Origin: a virus
Lineage: Duplodnaviria; Heunggongvirae; Uroviricota; Caudoviricetes
IMG/VR virus record: IMGVR_UViG_2541047855_000003
Length of the DNA: 36,859 nt
Strand: one strand, 5' to 3'
Numbering within the stretch: the first letter of the stretch is position 1; each line of letters opens with the position of its first letter. The translations under genes were made by a program, and so were the position numbers. Of the stretch, positions 2,957 to 36,859 are shown piece by piece. A model generated the notes under the pieces. It had not been told where the DNA came from, made no database searches, and was given only the letters and a program-made list of their open reading frames with translations.

Positions 2957-3199
2957 ATGGGCAAAGAATATAAAACTCTCATTAACAAAGCACTTGAGCG
3001 TTTTTATTTTCGCTTAAGTGCATCAGGTGCTCATGCTGAACGTGCAGCCCGTGACTCATTGACCAGGGCAATCCGGAGTCTGTATGACGTGGCTTTTTAC
3101 GCTGATGATCTGGATGCACTTAACGAACTTTCCGAGCTGATCTGTGCCGCAGAATGCGGAGAGCATATTGAACCGTATAAGCTGGGGAATATTGCATGA
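2957..3199 (+). CDS. Hypothetical early protein (80 aa)
   Basis: ORF in the early operon; no family recognised. Confidence 0.5.
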   Translation: MGKEYKTLINKALERFYFRLSASGAHAERAARDSLTRAIRSLYDVAFYADDLDALNELSELICAAECGEHIEPYKLGNIA

Positions 3200-3923: not shown

Positions 3924-4313
3924 ATGATTGACGCTCATGACTTCACAAGATGGGTGCGCACACAGGACACCCGTCTGGCTCCCGTTCTCCAAGGATTATT
4001 GGATCTTTACATCCGTGGTCGTGACAACAGAGCACGCACTACAAAACCGGAGAATGTGGATACCCTTTATTTCACAGTAGACGACTGCTACCGCGTGGAC
4101 TTCACACCACACGGACTGGCGTTGCACTGCCTGACACCGCACGGCGAATCACTGCTGGCGTATTACGACTCCCCGGCCTCCGTATTTGCGGCAATGCTGG
4201 CGCATCGCACTGCTGGCGGGTGTGCCTCGCTGAGTGAATACACCGCTGAATTTAACCGCCTTTCCACCATCTTCTTGCAGGAGTGGCAGCGCGTGACGGG
4301 ATACCAGCCATGA
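3924..4313 (+). CDS. Hypothetical protein (129 aa) immediately upstream of and coupled to gene A
   Basis: Stop TGA 4311-4313 overlaps the A start ATG 4310-4312. Confidence 0.55.
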   Translation: MIDAHDFTRWVRTQDTRLAPVLQGLLDLYIRGRDNRARTTKPENVDTLYFTVDDCYRVDFTPHGLALHCLTPHGESLLAYYDSPASVFAAMLAHRTAGGCASLSEYTAEFNRLSTIFLQEWQRVTGYQP

Positions 4314-8395: not shown

Positions 8396-8418
8396 TACAG
8401 CATAGATAAGGAGTATGT

Positions 8419-13935: not shown

Positions 13936-14089
13936 TGCTCCCCCTGAGTAATTACAGGAAGATTACCCGCGCGCGAAACCGTTCTCCTTAACCCCCTGTT
14001 CTGGCCGTTTTCTTACAACAAAAGCCCTTTGTATCAGCCTGTTACGCTTTGCCATCATGACTGAAGAACCAGTCAGAGGGGCAAAAACT

Positions 14090-14926
14090 ATGGCTAATGA
14101 AAAAAAGACATCCCGCAAAAAGTTTCGCGTGGCTGTCTCCGGATCAACTGTTGATGGCCGCGAAATCAGCCCGGTACATCTGCGTGAAGCCGCCGAGAAC
14201 TTCAACCCGGATGTTTACGCTGCCCGCGTGAACGTTGAGCACTATCTCTCGCCATGCCCGTCAAGCGAATTTTCCGCAATGGGCGATGTCACCGCGCTGA
14301 GTACGGAAGATATTACGGAAGGCCCGCTGGCCGGACGTACTGCGCTGTATGCAGAAATCGAACCGACCGAGCGCATGAAGCAGCTTGTCGCTGACGGCAA
14401 GAAAATCTATTCCAGTATCGAACTGCACCCGCAGTTCTCCGTTAACGGGCGCGCCTATCTGGTCGGGCTGGCGATGACCGACACCCCGGCAAGCCTGGGC
14501 ACTGAGCGCCTGAAATTCACGGCACAGCAACGTCAGGCGGTGATGACGTTCAACAGTATCCAGGGTGAAGCACCGCTTATCTCCGAAGCCATCGAGTCTG
14601 AAATCATCGAAATGGCAGAACAACGCCAGGAAGAAGGCACCCAGTGGTTTAACCGCGTAATGGGGATTATTGGTCGTGGCCGCAAAGCGGATGACGCCAG
14701 TTTCTCCCGTATTCAGGAAGCGGTGGAAGGCGTCGCAACGTCACAGGCCGACATTATCGACCGTTTTAATGTGCTGGAAACCCGCCATCAGCAGGACCGC
14801 CAGAAAATTACGTCACTGACCACAGAGCTGACAGCACTGAAGGAAAAACTGCGCACGCAGGACGGCGATCCGCAGAACCGGTTCACCGCAACGGGCGCAG
14901 CCTCCGACCAGCTGGCTGACTTCTGA
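14090..14926 (+). CDS. O: Capsid scaffolding protein (P2 gpO-like)
   Basis: Segment FRVAVSGSTVDGREISPVHL resembles the gpO N-terminus; GAGGGG RBS before ATG 14090 (longer ORF from 14057). Confidence 0.8.
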   Translation: MANEKKTSRKKFRVAVSGSTVDGREISPVHLREAAENFNPDVYAARVNVEHYLSPCPSSEFSAMGDVTALSTEDITEGPLAGRTALYAEIEPTERMKQLVADGKKIYSSIELHPQFSVNGRAYLVGLAMTDTPASLGTERLKFTAQQRQAVMTFNSIQGEAPLISEAIESEIIEMAEQRQEEGTQWFNRVMGIIGRGRKADDASFSRIQEAVEGVATSQADIIDRFNVLETRHQQDRQKITSLTTELTALKEKLRTQDGDPQNRFTATGAASDQLADF

Positions 14927-19368: not shown

Positions 19369-19996
19369 GGCATTCATCCGCGTGGATGAAACCTTTGAGG
19401 CCATCCGCGACAGCCTGAATCAGCAGGCCATCAATAACATCGCCAGAAAGCTGGCACAGGATTTACGCCGCGTCCAGCAGGCGCGCATCCGGTCACAGAA
19501 AGCGCCGGACGGGACCGCATGGACACCACGCAGACGCCGCGTAACCCGGATACAGGAGCGCATTCGCTTTATCTGGAATAACGAAGCACGCACGCTGAAA
19601 AACTGGCATCACGACACGGGGAAATACGGGCGAACCATCACCGGGTGGGATGAGGATAAAAACAGCATCCGCACGTTTTACCGGGATGACATCGACCGCT
19701 TTCTGGAAATACGCACCCGGCGCATCAACCAGGACAGCACAAAGCGCGTCCCCATGTTTGTAAAACTGCGCACCGCCCGCTACCTGAAAGCCCGTGCAGA
19801 TGCTTCCGGTGTGACGGTGGGTTACAGCGGCGTGGCCGCACGTATTGCACGCGTTCATCAGTTCGGTGAGCGCGATCAGGTTGCGCCGGGCATTTTCACC
19901 GATTACCCGGTACGTGAGCTGTTGGGCATCAGTCAGGCAGATGAGCGCCTGATTTATAACTCTGTGCTGGGCCGGATTGCGGAGGTTGTACGGTGA
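19361..19996 (+). CDS. S: Tail completion / virion morphogenesis protein S
   Basis: Position between R and V; about 211 aa (longer than P2 S). Confidence 0.7.
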   Translation: MDKAFIRVDETFEAIRDSLNQQAINNIARKLAQDLRRVQQARIRSQKAPDGTAWTPRRRRVTRIQERIRFIWNNEARTLKNWHHDTGKYGRTITGWDEDKNSIRTFYRDDIDRFLEIRTRRINQDSTKRVPMFVKLRTARYLKARADASGVTVGYSGVAARIARVHQFGERDQVAPGIFTDYPVRELLGISQADERLIYNSVLGRIAEVVR

Positions 19997-20574
19997 GCGC
20001 AGAACTCATGCGACTGCTGAGCAATATCATCCGCACCGGGATCATCTCTGAAGTTGATGAGGAATCCTGGTGCGTGCGCGTTCGCAGCGGCGAACTGGAA
20101 ACAGGCTGGCTGCGCTGGAACACCACGCGCGCGGGTGCCTTCAATGTGTGGTTGCCGCCATCACCCGGCGAACAGGTGGTAATTGCCTGCATCGGCGGCA
20201 ACCCGGAAACCGCCATGATAATTGGCAGTCTGTGGAGTGATGCCATTCCGGCACCCGGCAAAAGCCTGAAAGAAATCGTGGTCAGCGCGCCGGATGGCGC
20301 GGTGTTCCGCTACGACGCGGACGCAGGCGCACTGAGCGCCAGCGGCATGAAAACGGCCACTTTGCAGGCATCCGTCAGCGTGACACTGGATACGCCCGTC
20401 GTGGAATGCACAAACCTTCTGAAAACAGCCGAGATTGACGTCACAAAAGGGGGAAAGATGAGCGGCAATATCACGCACAGCGGCGGCGATTTCACCTCAA
20501 ACGGCATCACAGTGCATACGCATAAGCACGGTGGCGTTAAAGGTGGCAGCGATTCGACAGGAGGCCCGCAGTGA
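19993..20574 (+). CDS. V: Baseplate assembly/spike protein V
   Basis: 193 aa; synteny before W-J-I; start overlaps the S stop. Confidence 0.85.
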   Translation: MSAELMRLLSNIIRTGIISEVDEESWCVRVRSGELETGWLRWNTTRAGAFNVWLPPSPGEQVVIACIGGNPETAMIIGSLWSDAIPAPGKSLKEIVVSAPDGAVFRYDADAGALSASGMKTATLQASVSVTLDTPVVECTNLLKTAEIDVTKGGKMSGNITHSGGDFTSNGITVHTHKHGGVKGGSDSTGGPQ

Positions 20575-22346: not shown

Positions 22347-24806
22347 ATGAGTACCACAACACGAAAATTTAAAACCGTTATCACCGATACGGGTGCCAAA
22401 AAATTAGCTCAGGCAGCCGCGCCAGATGGTAAGCCTGTCCGCCTGACTCATATGGCCGTGGGCGACGGTGGCGGTACATTGCCCACACCAGACAGTAAGC
22501 AGACCCGTCTGGTGCATGAGGTGTGGCGACATACTGTTAATCGCATCATCCTGGACGCAACACATCAGAACCGCATTATTGCAGAGCTGGTTATTCCTCC
22601 TGAAACGGGCGGATTCTGGATCCGGGAAATTGGTGTGTTTGATGAGCACGGCGATTTGATCGCGGTGGGCAATACTGCCGAAAGTTACAAGCCAGCCGTT
22701 GCCGAAGGGTCCGGACGTGCACAAACATTTCGCACCATTCTGACCGTATCCAGCACTGCCACCGTGGCGCTTACCGTGGATAACACCATGGTTATGGCCA
22801 CAGTGGATTACGTGAATGACAAACTGAAAGAACATGAACAGTCACGACGTCATCCGGACGCCTCGCTGACCGCAAAAGGCTTTGTTCAACTCAGTAGCGC
22901 CACCAACAGCACGTCTGAAGCACTGGCCGCAACGCCGAAAGCGGTCAAGGCAGCCTATGACCTTGCTAACGGGAAATATACCGCACAGGACGCCACTACA
23001 GCGCGAAAAGGTCTTGTCCAGCTCAGTAGTGCCACCAACAGCACGTCTGAAACGCTCGCCGCAACACCAAAAGCGGTAAAGGCCGCGTATGACCTTGCTA
23101 ACGGGAAATACACTGCACAGGACGCCACCACAGCGCGAAAAGGTCTTGTCCAGCTCAGTAGCGTCACCAACAGCGATTCTGAAACGCTCGCCGCAACACC
23201 AAAAGCGGTTAAGGCAGCGTATGATCTTGCTAACGAAAAATATACCGCACAGGACGCCACCACAGCGCGAAAAGGCCTTGTTCAGCTCAGTAGCGCCACC
23301 AACAGCGATTCTGAAACGCTGGCGGCAACGCCAAAGGCGGTTAAGACAGCGTATGACCTTGCTAACGGGAAATACACTGCACAGGATGCCACCACGGCGC
23401 GGAAAGGTCTTGTTCAGCTTAATAGTGCCATCAACAGCGATTCTGAAACGCTGGCTGCAACACCAAAAGCGGTGAAGTCTGCCTATGACAATGCTGAAAA
23501 ACGTCTTCAGAAAGATCAGAACGGTGCGGATATTCCGGGAAAGGATACCTTCACGAAAAATATCGGTGCCTGTCGTGCTTATAGCGGTGCTTTGAGCACT
23601 GAATCCGGAAACTGGACAACCGCTCAGTTTATTGAATGGCTGGATTCCCGTGGTGCATTTAATCATCCGTACTGGATGTGCAAAGGCTCCTGGTCATATG
23701 CAAATAACAAAATCATTACGGATACCGGATGTGGTGATATCCACCTGGCTGGTTGTGTCGTCGAGGTCATGGGAACTAAATCTGCAATCACTATCCGAGT
23801 GACCACGCCGACAACATCAAGCGGTGGCGGTACAACCAGCGCGCAATTCACTTACATAAATCATGGGGACGGCTACTCCCCCGGCTGGCGTCGTGACTGG
23901 AATCGTCAGGGCGACGCAATGACCGGAACGATTAATCAGGATGGCGGAAGCCAGAATGCCTATATGTCTACGGCCTTATGTTCAGGCACCAGAGGCGGCA
24001 AAAAATATCTCAGAAAGTTTCGTGGTGGAGAAGGAGACACTATCTGGCATGAAACAGTACAGGCTGGGGTAATTCGCTGGGCGACAGGTAATACTGATGC
24101 TCAGGAAGAATTATCACTCAGCTCCGCTTATGGTCTCCGTTCTAGAGGTGAAATTACATCACTCAGTGCTAATGGTCTGCGCATTGCTTATGGCAATTAT
24201 GGATTCTTTATCAGGAATGATGGTGGCAGCACATATTTAATGCTGACGACCTCTGGCGATAAATTTGGGACATGGAACGGTTTAAGGCCGCTGACTATCA
24301 ATAACGCTAATGGCGGAGTGTCAATGGGGCATGGCCTGAGTGTTACTGGTGATATTGTCTCAAGTACCAAAGTACGTGCCGGTAGCGGGAAAAAACTCAC
24401 GGTCAGCAGCAGTAATACATCCACGAAGGAAGCCGCATTCAATTTGTGGGGAAACTCAAGTCGCCCGGTGGTAGCTGAATTAGGTGATGATGCAGGCTGG
24501 CATTTTTACAGCCAAAGAAATACAGATAACAGCATCACTTTTGCTGTTAACGGGCAGGTATCACCATCTAACTATGGCAACTTTGATTCACGTTATGTCC
24601 GGGATATTAGACTTGGTGGTGCGTCATCCTATAAACCAGCAAATAACGGGACAACATGGACGCATCAGACTCCATCTGGTTGCGCGTATACCGGGATAAT
24701 TGTTCAGGATACAGGCTCAAATTCTGCCGATAATATTGGTGGTGTTTATTACAGACCAATTCAAAAAAATATTAATGGCACATGGTATAACGTATCGAGT
24801 GTTTGA
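22347..24806 (+). CDS. H: Tail fibre protein H with internal tandem repeats and divergent C-terminal receptor-binding region
   Basis: N-terminus MSTTTRKFKTVITDTGAKKLAQA... is gpH-like; 819 aa; five in-frame 44-aa repeats; C-terminal third is lower-GC. Confidence 0.9.
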   Translation: MSTTTRKFKTVITDTGAKKLAQAAAPDGKPVRLTHMAVGDGGGTLPTPDSKQTRLVHEVWRHTVNRIILDATHQNRIIAELVIPPETGGFWIREIGVFDEHGDLIAVGNTAESYKPAVAEGSGRAQTFRTILTVSSTATVALTVDNTMVMATVDYVNDKLKEHEQSRRHPDASLTAKGFVQLSSATNSTSEALAATPKAVKAAYDLANGKYTAQDATTARKGLVQLSSATNSTSETLAATPKAVKAAYDLANGKYTAQDATTARKGLVQLSSVTNSDSETLAATPKAVKAAYDLANEKYTAQDATTARKGLVQLSSATNSDSETLAATPKAVKTAYDLANGKYTAQDATTARKGLVQLNSAINSDSETLAATPKAVKSAYDNAEKRLQKDQNGADIPGKDTFTKNIGACRAYSGALSTESGNWTTAQFIEWLDSRGAFNHPYWMCKGSWSYANNKIITDTGCGDIHLAGCVVEVMGTKSAITIRVTTPTTSSGGGTTSAQFTYINHGDGYSPGWRRDWNRQGDAMTGTINQDGGSQNAYMSTALCSGTRGGKKYLRKFRGGEGDTIWHETVQAGVIRWATGNTDAQEELSLSSAYGLRSRGEITSLSANGLRIAYGNYGFFIRNDGGSTYLMLTTSGDKFGTWNGLRPLTINNANGGVSMGHGLSVTGDIVSSTKVRAGSGKKLTVSSSNTSTKEAAFNLWGNSSRPVVAELGDDAGWHFYSQRNTDNSITFAVNGQVSPSNYGNFDSRYVRDIRLGGASSYKPANNGTTWTHQTPSGCAYTGIIVQDTGSNSADNIGGVYYRPIQKNINGTWYNVSSV
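22862..23496 (+). repeat. In-frame tandem repeat array inside H (about 4.8 copies of a 132-bp / 44-aa unit)
   Basis: Unit TAQDATTARKGLVQLSSATNS(T/D)SETLAATPKAVKAAYDLANGKY repeats with a few substitutions; period checked as 132 nt between recurring AAAAGG anchors. Confidence 0.9.
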
Positions 24807-25342
24807 TTATGATGCATTTAAAAAATATAAAACCGGGCAATCCAAAAACCAAAGAACAGTACCTGTTAACTAAAAACTCCAGCGTTGTCTGGTTATTCGA
24901 TGAAGATGGTAAAAACTGGTATGATGAACAAAAGAACTTTCAACCAGATACTATAAAGATTGCATATGATGAAAATAATGTCATATGCGACGTGCAAATG
25001 GATGTAACTGCAATTTGCCCAGAAGGAAAAAGTGTTGTCGAGTTGCCCAATATCACAGCAAACCGACGTGCTGATATTTCAGGTAACTGGATGTTTAAGG
25101 ATGGCGCAGTCATTAAACGTGTGTATACCGAAGAAGAGCAACGATTGCAGGCTGAAAACCAGAAACAAAGGTTATTACAACAGGCCAGAGAAAAAACGCA
25201 GTTCTGGCAAACCCAGCTTACTTTGGGGATTATCACTGATTCAGACAGACAGCAACTGATGAACTGGATGCGATACGTGCAACAGATTGAAGCCACTGAT
25301 ACCTCTGAATTGCCCGTTACATTTCCGGAACAACCAGAATAA
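24803..25342 (+). CDS. G: Tail fibre assembly chaperone (gpG/Tfa-like)
   Basis: 179 aa directly after H, overlapping the H stop; position and size typical of Tfa chaperones. Confidence 0.8.
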   Translation: MIMMHLKNIKPGNPKTKEQYLLTKNSSVVWLFDEDGKNWYDEQKNFQPDTIKIAYDENNVICDVQMDVTAICPEGKSVVELPNITANRRADISGNWMFKDGAVIKRVYTEEEQRLQAENQKQRLLQQAREKTQFWQTQLTLGIITDSDRQQLMNWMRYVQQIEATDTSELPVTFPEQPE

Positions 25343-25375
25343 ACGATAAGACCAGAATACCGGGTCTTATCGTTT
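25343..25375. terminator. Bidirectional hairpin terminator between convergent G (+) and U (-)
   Basis: Stem ACGATAAGACC (25343-25353) / GGTCTTATCGT (25363-25373) with 9-nt loop; T-rich flanks on both strands; only about 41 bp separate the two stop codons. Confidence 0.65.
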
Positions 25376-25383
25376 CTGTTAAA

Positions 25384-25878
25384 TCAGAACAGCCCTTTAA
25401 CTGAACTGGCCGCGTTGTTAATGGATGCTGTCACCTTATCTTTGAAGCCGGACAGCATATCGCTGAACGATGAGGATTGCAGGCGCTCCCGCAAATCCTC
25501 ATCACAGCGTTCAAGGGTCAGTGAAAATTCTATCTTTTTCGCCTTACCGTAGCGATCAAACTCGGAACTGGTCGTATTCGTTCCGGTCAGGACATACATG
25601 CCGTAAATCTGCCCGACGCCATCAATAAGAGGCCAGGGGCGTCCTGTATACGCCTGCGTGGTCAGCAGCGACAGCGACACTTCGCCACCTGTAATTTCAG
25701 GATAAAGCACACCAGAAAGAACAATACGATCATCGCCTGCCCCGATATACTGCCAGCTTGCTGAACGGTTAACGCGTTCATTTTTCACATGTCGCCAGCT
25801 TTTATTTTGCTGTAACTGCTGATGCGGCAATGTGCGCAGCTCAAAAACAAACATGCCGTAGATCATCATCATGGCCAT
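25384..25878 (-). CDS. U: Tail protein U (gpU-like)
   Basis: Motifs SWRH, LSGVLYPEITGG, WPLIDGVGQIYGMY resemble gpU. Confidence 0.85.
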   Translation of the reverse strand: MAMMMIYGMFVFELRTLPHQQLQQNKSWRHVKNERVNRSASWQYIGAGDDRIVLSGVLYPEITGGEVSLSLLTTQAYTGRPWPLIDGVGQIYGMYVLTGTNTTSSEFDRYGKAKKIEFSLTLERCDEDLRERLQSSSFSDMLSGFKDKVTASINNAASSVKGLF

Positions 25879-25884
25879 GACTCC

Positions 25885-28701
25885 TCAATCTTTATCGTAA
25901 AAACTGCCACGCCCGGCACGGGCGCGCCGTTCCATTTCTGCCCTGACCATTTCACCGACCAGTTTCGCTAGTTCGCGGGGATTCTGTGTAACAACGTTAT
26001 GCAGATGAACATGAATTTCACCGCCAAATCCGGAGGCAACAGGTTCCCGGTTACGGGAAGTTGCAGGAACTGATGCCACTGGCGATCGTATGGCCTCCGC
26101 CACCGGGCGGGAGCTGGCCGCAACAACAGGGACCAGCGCCGGAGGCAGCGGAGCCGGAACCACGGGTGTGATATTAATTGCGGTGGCAGGCTTACTGACC
26201 TGCACAATCTTCCGCTCCTGCCACTCCCCACGAACAACAAGTGCGCGGGGCAGGTTCTTAAAGACAATATCGCCGGGGCCAATGCGTTTTTTCGTCTCAT
26301 CAACCAGCTTACCTGTGTTATCAGCAATTTTGCTGAGTCTGCGTAGCGTCCCGGTATTGCTGTCTGTGAGCGGTTTATTGTCTTTGGGTTTATCACCTCC
26401 GGTGCCATTGCCATTTTCCACAGGCTTCGGCGGATTGATTTTCGCCAGGTCCCCCTGAAGCAAGGCAACCTTGTCCTGAAGAATGGCCGCACGCTGTGCG
26501 TCTTCGATTTTCTTTCTCGCCCTTTCCGCTTCATCCGGAAGAACACCGAGTTTTTCAAGTATCCACGCCAGCGTATCCAGCAACATTTTTGCAGGCGTCA
26601 GAACAAGCTGTAACGCGCCACCAAGAACGTTACCGAATATCTCGCCAGCACTGGTACATTTATCCAGCGTTTCCTTGCTGGACTCCATCGGTGACAGCAG
26701 CGATTTGAACCAGTTAAACACCTGGCTGATCCCGCTTCCGATTGCGTCAAAAACAGGACCAAACTGTTCAAAGGTTTCGCGCAACGGGATCAGCCTTTCC
26801 ATAATCCCGCTGAACACCCCGGCAAAAAATGCCCTGATGGGATCCCAGTATTTCGAGATAAGAACGGCAGCTCCGGCAAGCGCAGCCACGATAAGACCAA
26901 CCGGACTGAATAGCGCCCCGATAGCACCTCCCAGCAAAGAAACGGAACCCGTCACCATTCCCCATAGTGCTGGCAGGACCCTGACAGCATTCATTGATCC
27001 GGTCAGGAGAGAAAAACCAAGACGCAGTTTTGCCAGCGGGCCAGCAAGCACACCAATAGCCAGCGACAACGAGCCAACCGTTGCAGTCATTGCCAGCAAC
27101 GCACCGCCTGCTATCAGTAGCTGGCGCGTCAGTACCGGATGGGCCTGCGCCAGCGCCGTCACCCTTGATACCACCCACGTGAGCCACTGCGTGACAGAAC
27201 GCAGCGGACCGTCAATCAGATCTGCAATGCGGATGCGCAACCCTTCCCATGCACTGCCGAGTGATTTCAGATCGCCGTCAAGGTTGTTGGCCATAACCTT
27301 TGCTGTGCGTTCAGCCTCACCGCGCGCGCCTTCAAGTTCTTTTCTCAGTTTGGGTAAGGAACCGTCACCCGCTGCATCAACGAGCGCCATAAACGATGTG
27401 AAAGCCTCTTCTCCGGCAATGTCCTTAAAGAACGATACCCGGTCAACTTCCCCGTATTTGCGGGTGGCTTTATAAAGGTCAGCCAGCACATCCTCCATCG
27501 GGCGCATTTTGCCGTTCGCGTCAGAGACTGCCACACCAAGCTCTTTCAGCGCCTCTGCTGCTGCCTTTGGCGGTGATGCCAGACGAGCCAGGCTGGCACG
27601 CATTGCCGTCCCGGCATCACTCCCTCTGATACCCATATTCGCCAGCACGCCCGCCATCGCTGCGGCCTGCTCCAGCGATATTCCCAGCTTACCCGCCACC
27701 GGACCTGCATATTTCATGGTTTCACCCAGTGCGCGAAGGTCAGTGTTGGTACGGGTAAACGCTGCGGTGAGTGTGTCACCGACCCGGTCCATCTGGTCAG
27801 CAGAAAGGCCGAACTGCGTCAGGATATTTGAGCCAATATCTGCCGTCTCGCCGAGATCCATACCGCCAGCCGTTGCCATGCTCAGCACGCTGGGAAGCGC
27901 AGCCTGAATGGCCTGCGGAGTGAAGCCAGCCATTGCAAGAAATGCCTGTCCACTGGCGGCATCGCCTGCGGTAAACTGCGTTTCAGAGCCAAGTTTTAAC
28001 GCCTGCTCACGCAGCGCCTTAAACTGCGGGCTGTTCTGGTCGATTCGCGTCAGTGCCTGAACGCGGGACATCTCTTTGCCGAACCCGATCGCAGGCTGCA
28101 AAAAACGCCCCGCAGCATAGCCGCCCGCCGCTGCCGCACCAATTGCCAGCGCACCACCTGTTTTCAGTTTTCCCGCAGTTTCCTGCGCGCGCGAATACCG
28201 CTCACGCGCCCGCGTTACACGCGCAAGTGCCTGCCGTTCGCGTTCAAGCTGGTTGTTGTACTGTTCGGTGCGTCTGATGGCCTGCTGGATGGTGTTATCG
28301 CTGCCTGTCAGGGAAATGCCGTGGCGTTTCAGCTCTCCGCCAAGCTCCCGCATTTTCTGAATTTCCCGTGTGCGCGATTCATTCAGGCGTTCAAGCCGGG
28401 TGCTTAACTGCTGCATCAGCTTTTGTTGCTTTTCGCTGAGCACTGTACCCGTGCGTTGTAACTGATTAAGGGCGTTAAGCTGGCGTCGTGCTTTCACGAT
28501 ACCCGCATCCGCTTTACTGACAGCGTCGCGGGCGCGCTCAAATGAACGCGCCTGACGCTCGAGATTTTTGATCGCCCCCTGCGTTCGCTGGATGGAGTCA
28601 CCAAACTGCCCCATCAGGCGGCGGGCGTTTTCGGCAGGCCGGGTCAGCCTGTCAACGGCGCTGAAAGCGACCCGGATATCAAGAGTCTTCATTGTCTGCA
28701 T
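25885..28701 (-). CDS. T: Tail tape measure protein (gpT-like)
   Basis: About 940 aa, coiled-coil N-terminal half, Gly/Ala-rich hydrophobic C-terminal half; start ambiguous (28701, 28692 or 28728). Confidence 0.85.
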   Translation of the reverse strand: MQTMKTLDIRVAFSAVDRLTRPAENARRLMGQFGDSIQRTQGAIKNLERQARSFERARDAVSKADAGIVKARRQLNALNQLQRTGTVLSEKQQKLMQQLSTRLERLNESRTREIQKMRELGGELKRHGISLTGSDNTIQQAIRRTEQYNNQLERERQALARVTRARERYSRAQETAGKLKTGGALAIGAAAAGGYAAGRFLQPAIGFGKEMSRVQALTRIDQNSPQFKALREQALKLGSETQFTAGDAASGQAFLAMAGFTPQAIQAALPSVLSMATAGGMDLGETADIGSNILTQFGLSADQMDRVGDTLTAAFTRTNTDLRALGETMKYAGPVAGKLGISLEQAAAMAGVLANMGIRGSDAGTAMRASLARLASPPKAAAEALKELGVAVSDANGKMRPMEDVLADLYKATRKYGEVDRVSFFKDIAGEEAFTSFMALVDAAGDGSLPKLRKELEGARGEAERTAKVMANNLDGDLKSLGSAWEGLRIRIADLIDGPLRSVTQWLTWVVSRVTALAQAHPVLTRQLLIAGGALLAMTATVGSLSLAIGVLAGPLAKLRLGFSLLTGSMNAVRVLPALWGMVTGSVSLLGGAIGALFSPVGLIVAALAGAAVLISKYWDPIRAFFAGVFSGIMERLIPLRETFEQFGPVFDAIGSGISQVFNWFKSLLSPMESSKETLDKCTSAGEIFGNVLGGALQLVLTPAKMLLDTLAWILEKLGVLPDEAERARKKIEDAQRAAILQDKVALLQGDLAKINPPKPVENGNGTGGDKPKDNKPLTDSNTGTLRRLSKIADNTGKLVDETKKRIGPGDIVFKNLPRALVVRGEWQERKIVQVSKPATAINITPVVPAPLPPALVPVVAASSRPVAEAIRSPVASVPATSRNREPVASGFGGEIHVHLHNVVTQNPRELAKLVGEMVRAEMERRARAGRGSFYDKD

Positions 28702-29208
28702 TCCCGCTGCGAAGTGCCGCCCGCTCACGCCAGCTAACCACTTCGCCGGGCGTCATCATGAAGATTTCGGCGGGCGACCAGTTAAAAATAACGGCAATAT
28801 CTGCCACAAAGTCTTCTATGTGCTCAAAGCACACAACCGTGATCAGGCTTCCGTCGCCTGTTCGTTCTTCCCGCCAGAGTCCGCACCGCTCAAAAAATTT
28901 ACGGCAACCACACATAACTGAATAAAGTCACGGGATGCCATTTTTTTGATCGTCACTTCATCCAGTCGCGGTGATGTCACGCGTGACAGCAGCGTAAACA
29001 TGGATTCCGCTTTCAGATTCAGCACATCAGACAGCGACAAATCTCGCAGAGATCCAGCCTGCTCAATAGCTCCGGTGATCTCCACATACGTGATTTTTTC
29101 GCCGCCTCGCTCAATTGGTTGGGTAAGTTTTACGCCACGCTCACTGGTTTCTTTCACAGTGTCAGCAACGACCGTGTTTTCGGTATCGATGTTTTTCGTC
29201 TCTTTCAT
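28679..29208 (-). CDS. E+E' fusion produced by programmed -1 ribosomal frameshift
   Basis: Slippery T TTT TTG on the minus strand (+ coordinates 28891-28897); the -1 frame continues ...FFERCGLWREERTG... to a stop at 28679, overlapping the start of T. Confidence 0.65.
28843..29208 (-). CDS. E: Tail assembly chaperone E (gpE-like)
   Basis: 121 aa; AAGGAG RBS upstream of ATG 29208; carries the slippery heptamer near its 3' end. Confidence 0.8.
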   Translation of the reverse strand: MKETKNIDTENTVVADTVKETSERGVKLTQPIERGGEKITYVEITGAIEQAGSLRDLSLSDVLNLKAESMFTLLSRVTSPRLDEVTIKKMASRDFIQLCVVAVNFLSGADSGGKNEQATEA

Positions 29209-29262
29209 CAGGAAACTCCTTTCAGTCAGAGGCGACGCACTGCGCCGCCTGCATATTACTTA

Positions 29263-29775
29263 TCAGCCAAGCCCGAGCGCAGAACGGATGCGATCGGGCA
29301 CAATGTCCTTGCCGTCCTTCCGGTAAATGAAGTTCAGCAGGTCAATCTCCCACAACGGGCGATCGTTAACACTCAGCTTGTAGTAGGTGTTTTTAATGGC
29401 GTAAGTGTGTGATGTGGCTTCGCCCTGTTTGGCTTCCCCCATATCAATTTCCGTCACACGTCCGCGCATTTCGACTTCATACAGGTCGCTTTCTGCATCG
29501 GTGTAATATTCACCCGCAAAACGCAGCAGCGTGCCGTCAATCGTGCCGCCATACTTAAGGAACAGCTCACGAACTGCGCCCCCCATGACAAAGCTCGCAT
29601 CAAGCGCGGAGTCGTCCAGACCGAGATCAATACTTACCGCACCCATCATGCCACCACCCCGGTAGCTGTCGGTTTTGCGCGTCAGCTTAGGCAGAGTGAC
29701 GGACGTCACCTTACCCACTTCGTTTTCACCATCCACAAACAGCGTAAAAAAGCGAAGATGTTTTGGCACAGCCAT
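29263..29775 (-). CDS. FII: Tail tube protein (gpFII-like)
   Basis: Motifs TLPKLTRK, YRGGGMMG, DLGLDDSALD resemble gpFII. Confidence 0.9.
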   Translation of the reverse strand: MAVPKHLRFFTLFVDGENEVGKVTSVTLPKLTRKTDSYRGGGMMGAVSIDLGLDDSALDASFVMGGAVRELFLKYGGTIDGTLLRFAGEYYTDAESDLYEVEMRGRVTEIDMGEAKQGEATSHTYAIKNTYYKLSVNDRPLWEIDLLNFIYRKDGKDIVPDRIRSALGLG

Positions 29776-30959
29776 CAGGCACCTCCCAGCACCGCAAATG
29801 CGGGTTCAAAGTATTCATCAGTAAACGTCTGGTAAAGCTCCATGTCTTCCAGTGGCGGAACGGGCGTATATTTGTAGCGAATACGCACACGTCCCTGACG
29901 TAAATCCGTGGTGCTGTTATCCACCACGTCATACCAGCACTCCGCGCCAATCAGTTTCCCGGCAGTAACCAGTGAATCCAGTTTTGCCCTGATGGCACTG
30001 ATAACATCCTTCACGTTCGCAGGCGTCAGTGGACTGTCGATGGTTTCAAACTGCGCTTCCGCAATTGAATCAGCCAGCACCTGTGCGGTTCGGGTATACA
30101 CCTCAAAGATGTAGGCGTTCGTTTCCGGTGTGCGGTTGCCCCAGAAGCGGAACCCGTTGCGACGAATAATGGTCGTGATTTCTTTGTTGTTAAGGCTGTT
30201 GGCATCACTGTCTTCGGCCTGCAACGACCAGAAAACATGCCTCGACATCCCCAGCACATTTTTAACCGGAACGTTGGACAGCGATTTGTGCCATCCCTGC
30301 TCATGGTCAATGTACGCACGAAGGCCGCACGCATAGGCAGGCGCGGGGAACGTTTCGTTTTTGCCACTTTTCGGGTTGTAGGCGATGAAGTCCGGCCATA
30401 AGAGCATCACCTCACGTTCGTTGAATTTCTGGCGGTAGGTAATCGCCGCAGCCATCGTGTTACAGCCGTGACATGAGGCATACACAAACGCGCGCAGTTT
30501 ACCTGCAATCACGCACAGGGATTTTGTTACAGCCTCCGTGTCCAGCTCCGGCGCGGCCAGAATACGCGGACGGTATCCGATGCTTTCATCCTGCTCTGCA
30601 ACAAGCAGCGCATACATCCCCGTATAGCTGCCGTCATCCTCAGAACCACCGATAACCAGTTGATCCTGCGTCTTTCCGTCTTCTTCTTTGTGTTCAGCCA
30701 CGCGAACGACGATCACCTTTGTGCTCACCTGGTCTGCGATGGCCTTAAGCGCACGATAAAGCGTCCCCGTTGTCCCGCATTTTCCCAGCACGTCATTGAC
30801 GCGGGTCAGCAGTGTGGGCTTGTTCAGCGGGAACAGCTTCGCGTCCGCATCATCCGCCGTTGCCACGATACCGATAACGCTGGAATCAACATCGTTAATC
30901 GCTGTTACCAGGTCGGTATTTTCCGTAACACGGGCACCATGAAAACGAGTTTCACTCAT
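29775..30959 (-). CDS. FI: Contractile tail sheath protein (gpFI-like)
   Basis: 394 aa; FPLNKPTLLT and LKAIADQ motifs resemble gpFI. Confidence 0.9.
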   Translation of the reverse strand: MSETRFHGARVTENTDLVTAINDVDSSVIGIVATADDADAKLFPLNKPTLLTRVNDVLGKCGTTGTLYRALKAIADQVSTKVIVVRVAEHKEEDGKTQDQLVIGGSEDDGSYTGMYALLVAEQDESIGYRPRILAAPELDTEAVTKSLCVIAGKLRAFVYASCHGCNTMAAAITYRQKFNEREVMLLWPDFIAYNPKSGKNETFPAPAYACGLRAYIDHEQGWHKSLSNVPVKNVLGMSRHVFWSLQAEDSDANSLNNKEITTIIRRNGFRFWGNRTPETNAYIFEVYTRTAQVLADSIAEAQFETIDSPLTPANVKDVISAIRAKLDSLVTAGKLIGAECWYDVVDNSTTDLRQGRVRIRYKYTPVPPLEDMELYQTFTDEYFEPAFAVLGGA

Positions 30960-31116
30960 AGCTTCAGCCCCTTGTATCCGTTAAATGATTCGGCAACAAT
31001 CATCACCCACCACGCGCGTAATCTCACCCCTGCGCCGTTCTCCCGCCACGGCGACAACAAAAAGCAGTAACCCCCTACGCACGCACATGCGACCATGCCG
31101 CACAGGGAGGGAACAG

Positions 31117-32226
31117 ATGACCGATACCACCATGCAATTGCTCAGTCAGAGCACAGACCCCGTGAAAATGCCGGATTTTGATATTCTCGCGGAGGGGGAA
31201 ACACTGTCCGGCGTGGCAGAGCGCCTGATGAGCCTGTCACTGACCGACAACCGGGGATTTGAAGCGGACCAGCTCACCATCACGCTGGATGATGCGGATG
31301 GTCAGTTGCAGCTACCGCCACGGGGCGTGCGCCTGACGGTTCTCATTGGCTGGAAAGGAGAACCGCTGACAGAAAAAGGCACTTACATTGTTGATGAAAT
31401 CGCTCACGAAGGACCGCCGGACAGGCTGACGGTTTCAGCCAGAAGCGCAGATTTTCGGGATGAATTTAACGTTAAACGTGAGGTGTCCTGGCATGATGTG
31501 ACCGTTGAGCGCGTGGTATCCGCCATCGCTCATCGGTATGGTCTGAAACCGCAAATCAGCGAAATGCTGATGGATATAGAAATCGACCACGCCGACCAGA
31601 CCGAAGAAAGCGACATGTCCTTTCTTACGCGCATGGCGGAAATGCTGGGCGCAATCACCACAGTAAAAAGCGGTAATCTGTTATTCATCATGCCCGGTGG
31701 TGGCGTGAACGCACAGGGCCAGCCGTTGCCATCGTTCGCCATCACACGCAGCAGCGGCGATCGCCATCAGTTCCGCATTGCTGACCGCGAGGCGTATACG
31801 GGTGTACGCGCCTACTGGCTTGATCTTAATTACGGGAAAAAGAAAAAAGTCAGCGTGAAACGCCGCAAACCGCAAAAACCCAAAAAGGAGAAAAGCAGCA
31901 GCCGTGAAGGTGATTATATGGAAGGCGCGGAAGGCAACGTGTTTGTGTTACGCAAGACTTATCAGAACGAGCAGGCAGCAAGACGCGCAGCGGCGGCAAA
32001 GTGGCAGCAGCTACAACGCGGAGCCGCAGCGTTCTCCATCACACTGGCACGTGGACGCGCAGAACTCTACCCCGAAATGCATGGCACGGTAACAGGATTT
32101 AAAAGCGAAATTGATAATCAGGACTGGATTATTGCAAAAGCCGAGCACACCATTGATAACAGCGGCTTTACCACGCAGCTTGAACTTGAGGCAAAAATCC
32201 CGGAATGGATAGCAGAAACAGCTTGA
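31117..32226 (+). CDS. D: Tail protein D (late control gene D-like)
   Basis: ATG 31117 with GGGAGG RBS; about 370 aa with lysine-rich internal stretch; position before ogr. Confidence 0.8.
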   Translation: MTDTTMQLLSQSTDPVKMPDFDILAEGETLSGVAERLMSLSLTDNRGFEADQLTITLDDADGQLQLPPRGVRLTVLIGWKGEPLTEKGTYIVDEIAHEGPPDRLTVSARSADFRDEFNVKREVSWHDVTVERVVSAIAHRYGLKPQISEMLMDIEIDHADQTEESDMSFLTRMAEMLGAITTVKSGNLLFIMPGGGVNAQGQPLPSFAITRSSGDRHQFRIADREAYTGVRAYWLDLNYGKKKKVSVKRRKPQKPKKEKSSSREGDYMEGAEGNVFVLRKTYQNEQAARRAAAAKWQQLQRGAAAFSITLARGRAELYPEMHGTVTGFKSEIDNQDWIIAKAEHTIDNSGFTTQLELEAKIPEWIAETA

Positions 32227-32271
32227 TCAGCTAAGATGTATTGCACGCCTACCCCCTTCAGTTTTCTGACT

Positions 32272-32296
32272 GTCCGCTCTGTGCCAAGAGCGGACA
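32272..32296. terminator. Hairpin between convergent D (+) and herA-like (-) genes
   Basis: Stem GTCCGCTC (32272-32279) / GAGCGGAC (32289-32296), A/T-rich flank. Confidence 0.45.
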
Positions 32297-32394
32297 TATA
32301 TAATTTCGTACTGTATCAATCGAAAGGAATCAGCTCCTTCCTATCTCAAATATGAGACACTGCTTATAGCACCACTGGAAATTGGTTAAACATC

Positions 32395-34428
32395 TCAACT
32401 TTGCCAATCATCAGCTATCTGTTGCCAATTAACTTTCCGAGGTTCTTTTGTAGTGCTAGACCACACATCCCAAAAATCAGGATCATCAGATTGCGGTCGT
32501 TGTTTTTCAGTAAGCTCTTTCATTCTAACTAAAACAGGAAGTTCTGAAGCCCATCCAAGTAAAATAGCATGCCTAGATGGTAACGATGGCAGCTCTCTCA
32601 ACAGCCCTCTCATATTATCTGGAACAAGTCTATGTACTTGCTCTTGATCTCTATCATTACTAATCCTGTGCAACAAAAAAGTATTACATTGAGATAAAAC
32701 CGTCGGAGATAGCTCTGATGGCCTTTGGGAAGAAACAACAAGGCCTAGCCCAAACTTTCTTCCTTCCCGTGCAATCTTTTCAAACACCTTGCAACATATA
32801 TCAGAGACTGACTGAGTTTCACTATCTTCCTTGTAACGTTTAATAAACGTATGCGCTTCTTCTGCAACTAAAACTGTTGGTAGCGGCCTTCCATTTAATC
32901 TTCGATAACGTTGTAGTGCTTCAAAAGCCACCCTAGAAATTACAGCTGTTACCAAATGAATTATTTCATTTGGTACTAGAGATAAATCTATAACAGTTAT
33001 AGATCCTTGTTCATTTTTACCGAGAAAAGTGTCTAACCAATTAGTTAAACTTATAGGCTTTACAGAATCATTGGTTACTGCACTAATACGAGTGTCACCT
33101 AGCATTGTTCGAATACGAGTCAAAAGAAACTCAACGAATTGTTCTGTACCTGTTTCTTGAGCCAGAGCTTCGAGATATGCGACAAAATCATCGCCTTTAA
33201 AACGCATAGGCGCATCTTCGCTTTTTGGAAGAAGTTCTTGTTCATCTCCCCCTAGAGCTGTATATGCATCTCTGAATCCATTAATCAACAACTCAATCTC
33301 GGAAACAACAGGCTTTGCTGGCCAAGAAGATCCACTTCGTGAAGAAAGATACGTATTTATTGTGTTTATTAGCTTATCGAGCGATTTATCAACAATTCTC
33401 TCGTTTAAGATAGAAATACTATCTCTCCAAGAACCCAAAGTTTCAACCAAACCTTTAGCAGATCCACTATTCACATATATCTGACCTTGACTTGCCTGCT
33501 GTCTCATAGATACAAGAAGGATACCGCAAAAGCGTTTGGCTTGAATTTTCACATCATCTTCTGATAGAAGATTATTCCTCATTGCCCTCAAAGCACGACG
33601 TAGTAAAGGAAGTTGCACCTTTGAACTTGCTTGAGTGAAAGCAGCCCACTCAGAACTATTCCATAACCATGAAGGTACTTTAAGATCCATCTCTCCGACA
33701 TCGATGTTAGCCTCTACACGTAATAGTTTACCCTTATATCTTGATTCTGGCCCTAAAGCTCTACTATATTCTCCGTTCGGATCAAGTATTATAAATCGAG
33801 CATTTGGAGATTTTCCCTGTTGTAAAACAGCATCAAGAGACCATTGAATTAAGCCGGCCACCGAACATGATTTACCACTACCCGTATTACCTAAAACAGC
33901 TATATGTCGTCCGAAAAGTCTATCGGGGTCTACTTTTATTTCAGCATTGTTAGCTAGGGGGCTATCCCCTATTTTTACCCTTCTATTATCACCTGATTCA
34001 ATTATTGATTGTAATTGTCGGTCAGTAGGCAAAAGCACAGAGTCACCAACCGAAGGGAAAGCATCAGTTCCTCTCGTGAACCTGAAACCTTCGTTTTTTC
34101 TATCAACTCTCAATGTACCAACTGGATTGATACTAAGCTTTTTAAGTGGGAAAGGAAGGTCTATCAACCCAAAATCTTGTAAGCCTCTTCTTTTGGGATA
34201 TGGCGAGTTTTCTATTGCAATCCACTCAACTTGCCCAACAAGAAACCCGTCATCACTACGGATTAAAATATAACTATTTATTCTAGGAAAATTACGAGGC
34301 GCCCCACCTTGAAGTGATACTGAATCAGGAGAATCAATCTCTAAAGACACCCTAATTTCATTAGGTGATACAAACTCAACAGTTCCAATTCTTAGTTGTT
34401 CTATTTTTTCTATTGGTAAATAACTCAT
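32395..34428 (-). CDS. herA: HerA-like P-loop ATPase (SIR2-HerA defence pair, ATPase component)
   Basis: Walker A GNTGSGKS (about nt 33868-33891), Walker B VLVAEEAH, SQRP motif; N-terminal beta-rich region; start at M3 (34428, GAGGT 6 nt upstream) or 34434; overlaps the upstream gene stop by 4 nt. Confidence 0.8.
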   Translation of the reverse strand: MSYLPIEKIEQLRIGTVEFVSPNEIRVSLEIDSPDSVSLQGGAPRNFPRINSYILIRSDDGFLVGQVEWIAIENSPYPKRRGLQDFGLIDLPFPLKKLSINPVGTLRVDRKNEGFRFTRGTDAFPSVGDSVLLPTDRQLQSIIESGDNRRVKIGDSPLANNAEIKVDPDRLFGRHIAVLGNTGSGKSCSVAGLIQWSLDAVLQQGKSPNARFIILDPNGEYSRALGPESRYKGKLLRVEANIDVGEMDLKVPSWLWNSSEWAAFTQASSKVQLPLLRRALRAMRNNLLSEDDVKIQAKRFCGILLVSMRQQASQGQIYVNSGSAKGLVETLGSWRDSISILNERIVDKSLDKLINTINTYLSSRSGSSWPAKPVVSEIELLINGFRDAYTALGGDEQELLPKSEDAPMRFKGDDFVAYLEALAQETGTEQFVEFLLTRIRTMLGDTRISAVTNDSVKPISLTNWLDTFLGKNEQGSITVIDLSLVPNEIIHLVTAVISRVAFEALQRYRRLNGRPLPTVLVAEEAHTFIKRYKEDSETQSVSDICCKVFEKIAREGRKFGLGLVVSSQRPSELSPTVLSQCNTFLLHRISNDRDQEQVHRLVPDNMRGLLRELPSLPSRHAILLGWASELPVLVRMKELTEKQRPQSDDPDFWDVWSSTTKEPRKVNWQQIADDWQS

Positions 34429-34430
34429 TG

Positions 34431-35843
34431 TCATACCTCAACTTCGGCTGAATTACCTAACTCTTTGAACTGCATAAAGCCTCTTTGTTTGAGCAACTCT
34501 GCCATCTTGATTGATGCTTTATCAATAGCTGGTTTAGGTAAATAGTTATCAACTAAAGTTTTGAAGTCTCCTAAATGATCTCCCATCAAAAGGGTAATCT
34601 GTGCTTTTCTTCCACTATTACTAATGAAACGCATAATTCTGCCAAGTGGATCGCCAAAGGCTATTATTACTATATGAGTGGAAGGTACCGTAAGCATGTC
34701 TTCAATTACTCTATTGATATGCTCATCACCAAAGCTATAACCATAAGTGACTAATGTGCTATTTGGACGGCTAGTTGCTGCTGCCAGATCTCGAAATAGC
34801 TCAACATAAGGATACTCGGCTGTTTCTCTGTCTTTTACTGAATTAGGGTAAATCATCAGTTTTTCATAGCCATTGCTTTGATGACCTTCGGCTTCCAAAA
34901 ACGGCTCAACAGAACGTGCTCCAAAGGGTAAGCCAAAGCGCCTAATCGCATTATTTTGTTCATGCCAATCAAGGGAACCATGAAGTTTAGTAAAACGTGC
35001 CACGCCCTCCAAGTATCTTGGTTCACCACGGATTCCAGGAGGATTATAATGATAATCAACTTCTAATCTTGAGGATCGAAATACTGGAGCAATACTTCCT
35101 ACAAAGCGATCAATAAGTCTTAAACCAGCAAGCTCAGCACCCACTTCAATAATACGGTCATAATTTGTTGTAAAGATATGTAGCCTATCGCGAGTGGCAG
35201 TTCTACTTGCAAAGCTCATCAAAAAACTAACTAGATAGTTGAAAGTTTCCTCTTTCCGGGCTGGTTCAGCAGTTTTGATTAAATATTCTCCTTTAATTAT
35301 AGATTTAGAAAACTCCCCCAAGCATCTAGAAAGCTCGCCTTTGAGCTCGCCCAAGTCTGCTTTTAAGTTTCTATAAGCAGAATAAGGAGGTGGCGGATTT
35401 TCTGGTTGAGGAGTATTTAACACCGTTAAAATTTCGAGACCTTTAATAAGTTCATTGATAGTTCTAATTTGATCTTCTATATTTCCTCTATCGCGACCTG
35501 CAGCTTTTGCAGCCTGAGTGGAAAATTCATCTATTTCGCTTTTACATACTTTTAAATCATTAATCCACCCCATCCCTACTGGAGATAAACCTGTAGCTGA
35601 TTTTTGAATAGCCGAGCTTAAGCCTGCACCGATTAATAAATTTAAATGCTCTGATTGGAAGAGAGCTGTTAGCCAGGGCTCAATATTTTGGCGCAATTTC
35701 TCAATTGATATTTCTGCCCCCTGTTCTCCCCATACACAGTTCTTCGAGAGGATAAAAGGATGAGAATCAGCATGCTCGCCAGAATTAGATGATAGATCAA
35801 TAATTTCTGATATACTGCCAACTTTTATATGTTGAATACTCAT
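34431..35843 (-). CDS. sir2: SIR2-family (sirtuin-like NADase fold) protein, partner of HerA
   Basis: SIR2-type motifs in order: LLIGAGLS, TTNYD, KLHGSLDW; likely start at 35843 (MSIQHIK); AT-rich codon usage. Confidence 0.8.
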   Translation of the reverse strand: MSIQHIKVGSISEIIDLSSNSGEHADSHPFILSKNCVWGEQGAEISIEKLRQNIEPWLTALFQSEHLNLLIGAGLSSAIQKSATGLSPVGMGWINDLKVCKSEIDEFSTQAAKAAGRDRGNIEDQIRTINELIKGLEILTVLNTPQPENPPPPYSAYRNLKADLGELKGELSRCLGEFSKSIIKGEYLIKTAEPARKEETFNYLVSFLMSFASRTATRDRLHIFTTNYDRIIEVGAELAGLRLIDRFVGSIAPVFRSSRLEVDYHYNPPGIRGEPRYLEGVARFTKLHGSLDWHEQNNAIRRFGLPFGARSVEPFLEAEGHQSNGYEKLMIYPNSVKDRETAEYPYVELFRDLAAATSRPNSTLVTYGYSFGDEHINRVIEDMLTVPSTHIVIIAFGDPLGRIMRFISNSGRKAQITLLMGDHLGDFKTLVDNYLPKPAIDKASIKMAELLKQRGFMQFKELGNSAEVEV

Positions 35844-36267
35844 AAATGCACTTCTTTTATTTGTGTTAAAAAACATACTTTTGTAGAGGCAAACGAGTGC
35901 CAAGAGTATGAAACTTAGCGATTAAGTTCGAATCTTACACCTCCCAAAGCCTCTGAGAATTATCAACCTAACCCAAAGGAACTCAATCAGCGTTTTATTT
36001 TAGCACGACTAAATAACTAGTAGATAGCGTCAAAGACAAACCGGGGAGATAAAAACTTACAACACTGCCACCAGTAAAATCATCTACATACCAACAAGTT
36101 GCCTTCAATCACGTAGAATAATCCTACTAGTGCATAGTCAATCTCGACTACTTACTCAGTGAAAATTCAACTGCAAACTTCTGGTTTTTACTCAAAGCAA
36201 GCAGTTAGTTGGAATCAGTATTAGTACAACTTAGAATAATAGAAACACCACGTTAAGGGAGGTCGCT

Positions 36268-36528
36268 ATGTTCCGTTGTCCACTTTGTGGCGCGTCTGCC
36301 CGTATCCGCACCAGTCGTCCGGAAAATGACTCAAACACCGTGCGGCAAAAGTATTACCAGTGTAATAACCTGGAATGCGGCGTATGCTTCTCAACACTGG
36401 AAGCTTTTCATAAGTTCACATCAAAACACACCTCAGAAGTTCATTCTTCAGAAGACATACCGTGGCAGGCTCTGCCAGCTTCACACAGGGGGAACAATCA
36501 GATGAGTTTGCCCTTATCTCAGAATTAA
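36268..36528 (+). CDS. ogr: Ogr-like zinc-finger late-gene transcription activator
   Basis: MFRCPLCGASARIRTSR...YYQCNNLECGVCF matches the Ogr Cys4 pattern (CPLC...RTSR...QC...C); AGGGAGG RBS; 86 aa, longer than P2 Ogr. Confidence 0.85.
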   Translation: MFRCPLCGASARIRTSRPENDSNTVRQKYYQCNNLECGVCFSTLEAFHKFTSKHTSEVHSSEDIPWQALPASHRGNNQMSLPLSQN

Positions 36529-36588: not shown

Positions 36589-36852
36589 ATGGTCGGAGGG
36601 AATACCCGAAGGCCAGATGTGGAAAGGCCCCGGAAAACATCTCTGTTTAACCGAGGCCCTAACCGCATTACCTTGACAAGTGAAAGGTTAGCGCCTCTCC
36701 TGAAAAGGAGCAAGTGCTATGTCGCAAAAATCGCTTACGGCCATCACGTTCTGCGTGACGGCAATCCTCATCATCTGGATGCTGCACGGTTCGCTGTGCG
36801 AAATACGGATGAGCTTCTGGGGAGCGGAGTTTGCGGCGTTCTTACAGTGTAA
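36589..36852 (+). CDS. mok: mok-like overlapping reading frame (modulator of killing) of the hok locus
   Basis: ORF starting upstream of hok and overlapping it in another frame, as in hok/sok loci; no independent sequence evidence. Confidence 0.4.
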   Translation: MVGGNTRRPDVERPRKTSLFNRGPNRITLTSERLAPLLKRSKCYVAKIAYGHHVLRDGNPHHLDAARFAVRNTDELLGSGVCGVLTV

Positions 36853-36859
36853 GCAGTAA
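36719..36859 (+). CDS. hok: Hok/Gef-family type I toxin (small membrane protein)
   Basis: 46 aa MSQKSLTAITFCVTAILIIWMLHGSLCEIRMSFWGAEFAAFLQCKQ: N-terminal TM helix plus the family motif SLCEIR and AAF; AAGGAG RBS; stop TAA is the last codon of the window. Confidence 0.8.
   Translation: MSQKSLTAITFCVTAILIIWMLHGSLCEIRMSFWGAEFAAFLQCKQ

Follow-up and report, generated by a model that had tools for sequence, protein, structure and literature searches.

An inverted tail module in a P88-like prophage

The 36,859-nucleotide stretch of DNA analysed here (IMG/VR record IMGVR_UViG_2541047855_000003; hereafter the window) carries the tail genes of a P2-like phage, in which the block from the tail sheath gene FI through the tail tube gene FII, the tail chaperone genes E/E' and the tape measure gene T to the tail gene U lies on the minus strand, between the tail fibre genes H and G and the tail/baseplate hub gene D on the plus strand. 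This inverted FI-U block is very probably the fixed and normal layout of the clade of phages around Escherichia phage P88, with D likely transcribed from a late promoter of its own that shares the activator dyad of pF, the promoter from which FI is read. The strand layout itself is already known, as it is visible in the public annotated genomes of three genera of the International Committee on Taxonomy of Viruses (ICTV), and about a quarter of complete E. coli genomes carry it, so that it has little weight as a discovery. The small new element is the probable D promoter, which would repeat at a second site a design known from P2 between its genes P and O.

Pfam matches and the strands of the open reading frames (ORFs) agree with the strand assignments made in the initial annotation. 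On the minus strand are U (25384-25878; Phage_P2_GpU, 1.6e-38), T (25885-28728, with a RefSeq start at 28692; PhageMin_Tail, 3.6e-58), E (28843-29208), FII (29263-29775; Phage_tube, 7.5e-47) and FI (29775-30959; Phage_sheath_1, Gp18_domIII_N and Phage_sheath_1C). The Pfam scan gave no match for E, whose counterparts in P88 and in a prophage of E. coli HSP60 are annotated as tail protein/GpE. A slippery heptamer, T TTT TTG (28897-28891), lies in the correct register between the E and E' frames just upstream of the tape measure gene, and a -1 frameshift there gives the E+E' product (28679-29208), the E' frame ending at 28679. On the plus strand are H (22347-24806, 819 amino acids; Phage_tail_fib and Phage_fiber_2, a fibre N-terminal domain plus repeats), the tail fibre assembly gene G (24809-25342 from its ATG, the longest ORF opening with TTG at 24803; Caudo_TAP, 1.8e-34, and the RefSeq annotation of HSP60) and D (31117-32226, 369 amino acids; Phage_GPD), which is 48% identical to D of P2 and 96-98% identical to P88-type D. 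The canonical P2 map, given in the initial annotation as H, G and FI-FII-E-T-U-D on one strand with Z/fun between G and FI, agrees with the P2 record NC_001895, where all of these genes but fun(Z) share a strand and FI to D are annotated as one operon from pF. The P2-type F operon, in which six genes follow G on its strand and D closes the series, is thus not what the window holds: FI to U are on the minus strand, H, G and D are on the plus strand, and Z/fun-like genes are absent from the G-U junction and from the rest of the window, again as first described.

By sequence, the window is a P88-like prophage of E. coli (genus Xuanwuvirus, Peduoviridae), a placement based on stretch-wise identity and gene order. 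From 25373 to ~32220 it shares 95-97% DNA identity with Escherichia phage P88, P88_4B11, PhiR44_2, Citrobacter phage PhiSM and others, and the remaining window also matches P88-type phages except in its cargo genes and fibre tip. Queried window stretches were 96-97% identical over 65-82% of their length, the uncovered parts being that cargo and the fibre tip. The Xuanwuvirus gene order J-I-H-G / U-T-E-FII-FI (reverse) / D-ogr is present, as are the sheath, tube, gpU, gpD and tape measure families (Pfam, E-values 3.3e-17 to 3.6e-58).

Distribution of the layout among relatives

We surveyed related loci using D as the anchor, taking 40 loci from one-genome-per-species bacterial assemblies (D identity 67-98%) and 80 viral contigs from IMG/VR (60-100%). 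The bacterial loci include Salmonella, Edwardsiella, Serratia, Erwinia, Pantoea, Pectobacterium, Brenneria, Kosakonia, Klebsiella and Symbiopectobacterium. Wherever the genes were present, every locus had J, I and H on the plus strand, U, T, E, FII and FI on the minus strand, and D and ogr on the plus strand. FI was on the minus and D on the plus strand in all 37 bacterial loci holding both genes, which span at least 25 Enterobacterales genera, and all 80 IMG/VR loci were inverted, down to a D identity of 60%. All told, the inverted layout is shared by 120 of 120 related loci informative for orientation, and the opposite orientation of FI-U was not seen in any clade locus examined. The FI-D junction (at least 80% coverage) was found in 1358 of 5426 complete E. 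coli genomes (25%), and 1360 of 1381 E. coli records retain it intact.

Named phages divide along the same line. The inverted layout is found in Xuanwuvirus (P88 and P88_4B11, whose annotated records place J-I-H-G and D-ogr on the strand opposite to U, T, E', E, FII and FI), in Senquatrovirus (SEN5; D 63% identical) and in Reginaelenavirus (Klebsiella phage Kp4871-3; 73%). The collinear P2 order was seen in P2 (Peduovirus) and in six other Peduoviridae genera, namely Felsduovirus (RE-2010), Wadgaonvirus (500465-1), Firavirus (YenM_42.18), Entnonagintavirus (ENT90), Citexvirus (phiCTX) and Baylorvirus (phiMhaA1), with D identities of 42-54% by search (ENT90 reached 64% in a comparison over a shorter segment). 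In this sampled rather than exhaustive set, the clade boundary falls roughly between collinear phages with D mostly 42-54% identical and inverted phages with D at least 60% identical.

The initial annotation had left two possibilities, a lineage-specific module inversion or an organization typical of a P2-like subgroup. The second is what the three genera, the 120 loci and a quarter of E. coli genomes bear out, reference P2-like genomes having the same strands as their norm; the first survives only as an inversion relative to P2, old and fixed. Since P88 can be induced and the plaque-forming PhiSM is released spontaneously (PMC6456863), the inverted layout belongs to working phages. Rearranged tail operons are on record in other P2-like phages, for example Smp131 (PMC3931495), and the strand arrangement is not discussed in papers on P88, PhiSM and SEN4/5 or in a comparison of P2-like phages of Burkholderia. 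The textbook P2 map is not valid for every P2-like phage, and annotators and prophage callers should not read this strand switch as a rearrangement or a misassembly.

Origin of the inversion

The block FI-U would have inverted once, relative to the P2 order, in the common ancestor of the clade and then been kept. Among clade loci with D below 90% identity, the identities of FI, U and J correlate with that of D (Pearson r 0.90, 0.82 and 0.92, respectively). Because FI and U track D about as well as the baseplate gene J does, we infer that one ancestral inversion followed by co-divergence fits these sequences and that repeated module swaps do not. The proposed single origin is drawn from this correlation of identities.

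The departure of the layout from the textbook P2 map might be taken as the sign of a recent inversion in this strain or of faulty assembly. The same junctions occur, however, in sequenced phage isolates, and two 901-bp queries spanning the junctions matched a prophage adjoining ihfA-pheT in E. coli HSP60 at 100% and MFDS1006657 at 100% and 99.9%. Given these matches, the 120 concordant loci and the FI-D junction in the 1358 complete E. coli genomes, an assembly error or an oddity of this genome is excluded. It is just as improbable that FI-U is a programmed invertible segment, flipped by a site-specific invertase and caught in one of two states, an idea suggested by the serine DNA invertase that P88 and some relatives carry directly beside the 3' end of U. 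Where present, this gene accompanies an alternative fibre tip/assembly gene pair, on the opposite strand in P88, and a tblastn search with the P88 invertase between H and U found it in only 8 of 77 clade loci and not in the other 69. The same cassette is present in the collinear phage 500465-1, there beside FI. The P88 invertase belongs to an invertible tail fibre segment, a classic fibre switch, and as so few members of the clade have this segment it is unrelated to the orientation of FI-U. In the window itself, no invertase was found between H and U by this search or among its ORFs, and a scan of 24700-31500 for inverted repeats gave no pair linking the G-U and FI-D junctions, only imperfect matches of 15-24 nt at chance level within coding sequence; on both counts the initial annotation had reported the same absence. 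With so few invertases, the cassette in a collinear phage and one uniform orientation at every locus examined, FI-U is not such a segment.

Phage genomes are mosaic, and in this one the fibre end (G and the C-terminus of H) is clearly a replacement, its GC (guanine plus cytosine) fraction being 0.42 and part of it up to 96% identical to Yersinia phage fibres, so a foreign sheath-tube-tape measure module might likewise have been inserted backwards in place of the original instead of the original inverting where it stood. We regard this as very unlikely: identity to P2 is 44-46% for FI, FII and U, near the 48% of D; FI and U co-diverge with D and J across the clade; and the pF dyad lies as far from the FI ATG as it does in P2. 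Even if true, such an event would remain ancestral to the clade.

A predicted late promoter for D

FI and D diverge across the 157 bp from 30960 to 31116, coordinates that agree with those first given, and across 96 distinct relatives the gap measures 146-163 bp. The reversal of FI-U puts D out of reach of pF, from which it is transcribed in P2, and since the plus-strand sequence upstream of the gap is antisense to 5.6 kb of tail genes and lies beyond the terminator of G, a promoter for D is needed within the gap itself. The initial annotation had argued that D must have its own promoter, and a conserved Ogr-type dyad together with -10-like elements on both strands of the gap supports this. 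The exact published consensus of P2 late promoters, TGT-N12-ACA (PMC3931495), is absent from the gap, but a conserved dyad with one mismatch, the candidate activator site GTTCT-N12-ACAAC, lies at 31037-31058 (centre 31047.5). Perfect copies of this pattern occur at just two places in the window, here and at 13998-14019 in the P-O gap; the pattern was derived from these two sites, and the form used across the clade was TT(G/C)T-N12-ACAA. Across the 96 gaps one dyad is found at a distance of 80.5-88.5 bp to the FI ATG and, in most, of 65-80 bp to the D ATG; its half-sites are at least 90% conserved, and its N12 spacer varies freely in the gap alignment. More distant relatives carry a perfect GTTGT-N12-ACAAC at the same position, in agreement with the P2 consensus.

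The clade alignment also reveals conserved elements flanking the dyad, GATnAT towards FI and TGnnAnnAT towards D, both with their hexamer centred 46 bp from the centre of the dyad. In the window these are a predicted pF -10 hexamer, GATGAT (30999-31004, minus strand), whose GATnAT columns are 75-90% conserved or better, and a predicted extended -10 for D, TGcGACCAT (31088-31096, plus strand), conserved to the same degree at TG, A(-11) and AT(-8/-7). From the conserved -10 elements 46 bp to either side, start sites are predicted at ~30992 (minus) and ~31103 (plus); these are separated by 111 bp, and the dyad is at -55.5 relative to each.

These elements suggest that D, together with ogr where the two adjoin, is probably read from an Ogr-dependent promoter of its own that lies back-to-back with pF. 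The inversion of FI-U would have moved pF, along with its Ogr-binding dyad, to a position beside the start of D, so that D, the last gene of the FI operon in P2, would be read from its own late promoter; a -10 at the mirror position would let the single dyad, ~55 bp upstream of both predicted starts, serve both directions, and the inverted operon would end at the hairpin common to the converging fibre operon. A fifth late promoter, serving D, seems to exist in the clade, using the activator site of pF and copying the pP/pO design of P2. We lean towards the view that the inversion itself, by placing the symmetric Ogr dyad of pF beside D, created a second bidirectional late promoter of the pP/pO kind that fires the sheath-tube operon and a new D(-ogr) operon together.

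Several observations weigh against this interpretation. The dyad has TCT in one half, one mismatch from the TGT-N12-ACA consensus; that consensus itself has three matches in the window, none of them at a late promoter, against nine expected by chance. The relaxed motif is not enriched in the window either (four matches against 2.8 expected in shuffles), and with two mismatches allowed there are 55 matches against 56 expected. As the relaxed motif is at chance level, support for the dyad comes from its position and its conservation across the clade and not from counts. A sigma-70 scan found no site in the FI-D gap, which is expected of activator-dependent promoters and adds no support. The predicted D leader is merely ~13-15 nt long, and the start sites and the dependence on Ogr are predictions from sequence.

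D might instead be read from an Ogr-independent promoter, or from a second, separate activator site, and not through the pF dyad. The D-side element is an extended -10 (TGn), a type that can function unaided by an activator; in some distant relatives a further GTTGT half-site intervenes between dyad and D; and ogr of P2 has its own promoter. Set against this, nearly all of the 96 gaps have one full dyad only (the second-best site has at least two mismatches in 92), and the 46 bp from dyad to -10 on both sides matches the common pP/pO site of P2. We therefore consider a separate promoter or activator site for D rather unlikely and prefer the shared dyad. If the shared dyad is confirmed, Ogr would gain a direct positive-feedback loop in those phages where D and ogr are adjacent, and the FI-D region would document the rescue of a gene orphaned by rearrangement through the re-use of a palindromic activator site. 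The regulatory point is easily testable in P88 or PhiSM lysogens.

The longest ORF for D starts at 30985. This start was dropped for 31117 on the basis of a Shine-Dalgarno sequence, homologue alignments and the P88 annotation, the alignments supporting the 369-residue protein. Public annotation over the FI-D promoter region is uneven: P88 has a 132-bp "hypothetical protein" there, and in RefSeq the HSP60 prophage has D called as an 801-bp gene, with a start ~300 bp too late, plus a pseudo "hypothetical" gene. The discrepancies fall at 30939-31070 and 31117-31426 in the window, and at 13567-13698 and 9774-10627 in the related loci L001 and L134. The small ORFs annotated over this region are probably spurious.

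The G-U junction and the fibre end

At the other end of the block, the stop codons of the convergent genes G and U are 41 bp apart and share a hairpin of 33 nt with a 12-13-bp stem (25342-25374), followed on each strand by a U-rich tail (UUUCUGUU and UUUAUUCUGGUU). Its RNA fold has an energy of -20 kcal/mol on the plus strand (z = -5.2) and -21 kcal/mol on the minus strand (z = -3.3). The convergence and the common hairpin noted in the initial annotation are both found, and from the fold and the tails we infer termination, 25342-25374 being likely a bidirectional intrinsic terminator.

The C-terminal part of H together with G (24000-25373) has the low GC fraction given above and none of it matches P88. 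Its first ~600 bp (24000-24608) are up to 96% identical to fibres of Yersinia pestis phages, and the remainder to 25373 is ~80% identical or less. Homology to P88 restarts at 25373, within the G/U hairpin, and a direct G-U junction as in the window occurs in only 28 of the 5426 E. coli genomes. H also holds 4.7 copies of a 132-bp tandem repeat (22874-23489, 88% matches; Tandem Repeats Finder), and in the otherwise identical HSP60 prophage H is 44 amino acids shorter, the equivalent of one repeat unit.

Cargo genes and the right end of the prophage

Downstream of D, a terminator-like hairpin was found by scanning at 32271-32296 on the plus strand (fold -21.6 kcal/mol, z = -5.0), and a gene for an Ogr/Delta-type late activator follows at 36268-36528, also on the plus strand (Pfam Ogr_Delta, PF04606, 4.4e-14, and annotation). 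Between them is a SIR2-HerA anti-phage defence pair (32395-35903, minus strand; flanks 32227-36267) with a GC fraction of ~0.39, recognized by PADLOC (HerA 3e-252, SIR2 3e-155). D and ogr are ~45 nt apart in most relatives and this insert is present in only 20 of the 5426 complete E. coli genomes; since a few related loci (L005, L106 and L113) also hold inserts there, the D/ogr junction looks like a cargo slot of this clade. In the window the insert separates ogr from any read-through from D. A second defence pair, IetA/IetS (7274-10644, plus strand; PADLOC 9e-78 and 4e-51), sits in a low-GC stretch downstream of the replication gene A (4283-7093), the position of tin/old in P2. After ogr, a toxin gene of the hok/gef family (about 36719-36859) reaches the end of the window, as in P88, and in strain HSP60 the host genes ihfA-pheT lie just past the right end of the prophage.

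Comparison with P2, P88 and other named phages

The window shares with the F operon of P2 the same gene set, including the -1 frameshift heptamer of E/E', and a pF-type dyad about 83-88 bp upstream of the FI ATG; in the P2 record, 83 bp separate the centre of the pF activator site from the FI ATG, and 58 bp separate it from the mapped start. The operon of P2 is, however, collinear with H-G, includes D and is preceded by Z/fun, whereas in the window FI-U is reversed, D is detached and there is no cargo between G and the block.

The closest regulatory parallel is the divergent pP/pO region of P2, for which the record gives a single "activator binding site; pO, pP promoters" at 3057-3087. The mapped starts, 3016 (minus) and 3127 (plus), are 111 bp apart, with the site at -56 and -55 and the -10 hexamers ~46 bp from its centre. 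The sites of pF and pP/pO in P2 are themselves imperfect, both reading TGT-N12-CCA. P2 and the window thus both have one dyad midway between divergent late operons and starts 111 bp apart, mapped in P2 and predicted in the window; P2 is known to have this design at P/O only, whereas the window would also have it at FI/D, where its function is predicted from the sequence. The P-O region between the terminase gene P and the scaffold gene O of the window carries the second perfect GTTCT-N12-ACAAC dyad (13998-14019). For O, the longest ORF starts at 14057, and this start was dropped for the ATG at 14090 because of a Shine-Dalgarno sequence, GAGGGG, and the P88 annotation. With O at 14090 the P-O gap (13936-14092) is 154 bp and follows the FI-D plan, with one dyad and -10 elements TAATCT (minus) and TGcCATCAT (plus). 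P2 also has a promoter, pV, upstream of the baseplate gene V; no Ogr-type dyad was found there in the window (19900-20000) with two mismatches allowed, and V to G may be transcribed by read-through from the O operon or may depend on a more degenerate site.

P88 and P88_4B11 have identical gene order and strands, 95-97% DNA identity across U-T-E-FII-FI-D and an FI-D gap of 156-157 bp with the same dyad. P88 differs in that a DNA invertase and an invertible alternative fibre segment separate its G from its U, where the window has only 41 bp, and the window differs from P88 in its fibre tip and G, in the SIR2-HerA pair between D and ogr and in IetAS after gene A. The more distant SEN4/SEN5 (Senquatrovirus) and Klebsiella Reginaelenavirus phages likewise have FI-U inverted: G and U converge directly, FI and D diverge, and D is followed by ogr. 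Their D proteins are only 63-73% identical to that of the window, and their dyad is a perfect GTTGT-N12-ACAA(C/T).

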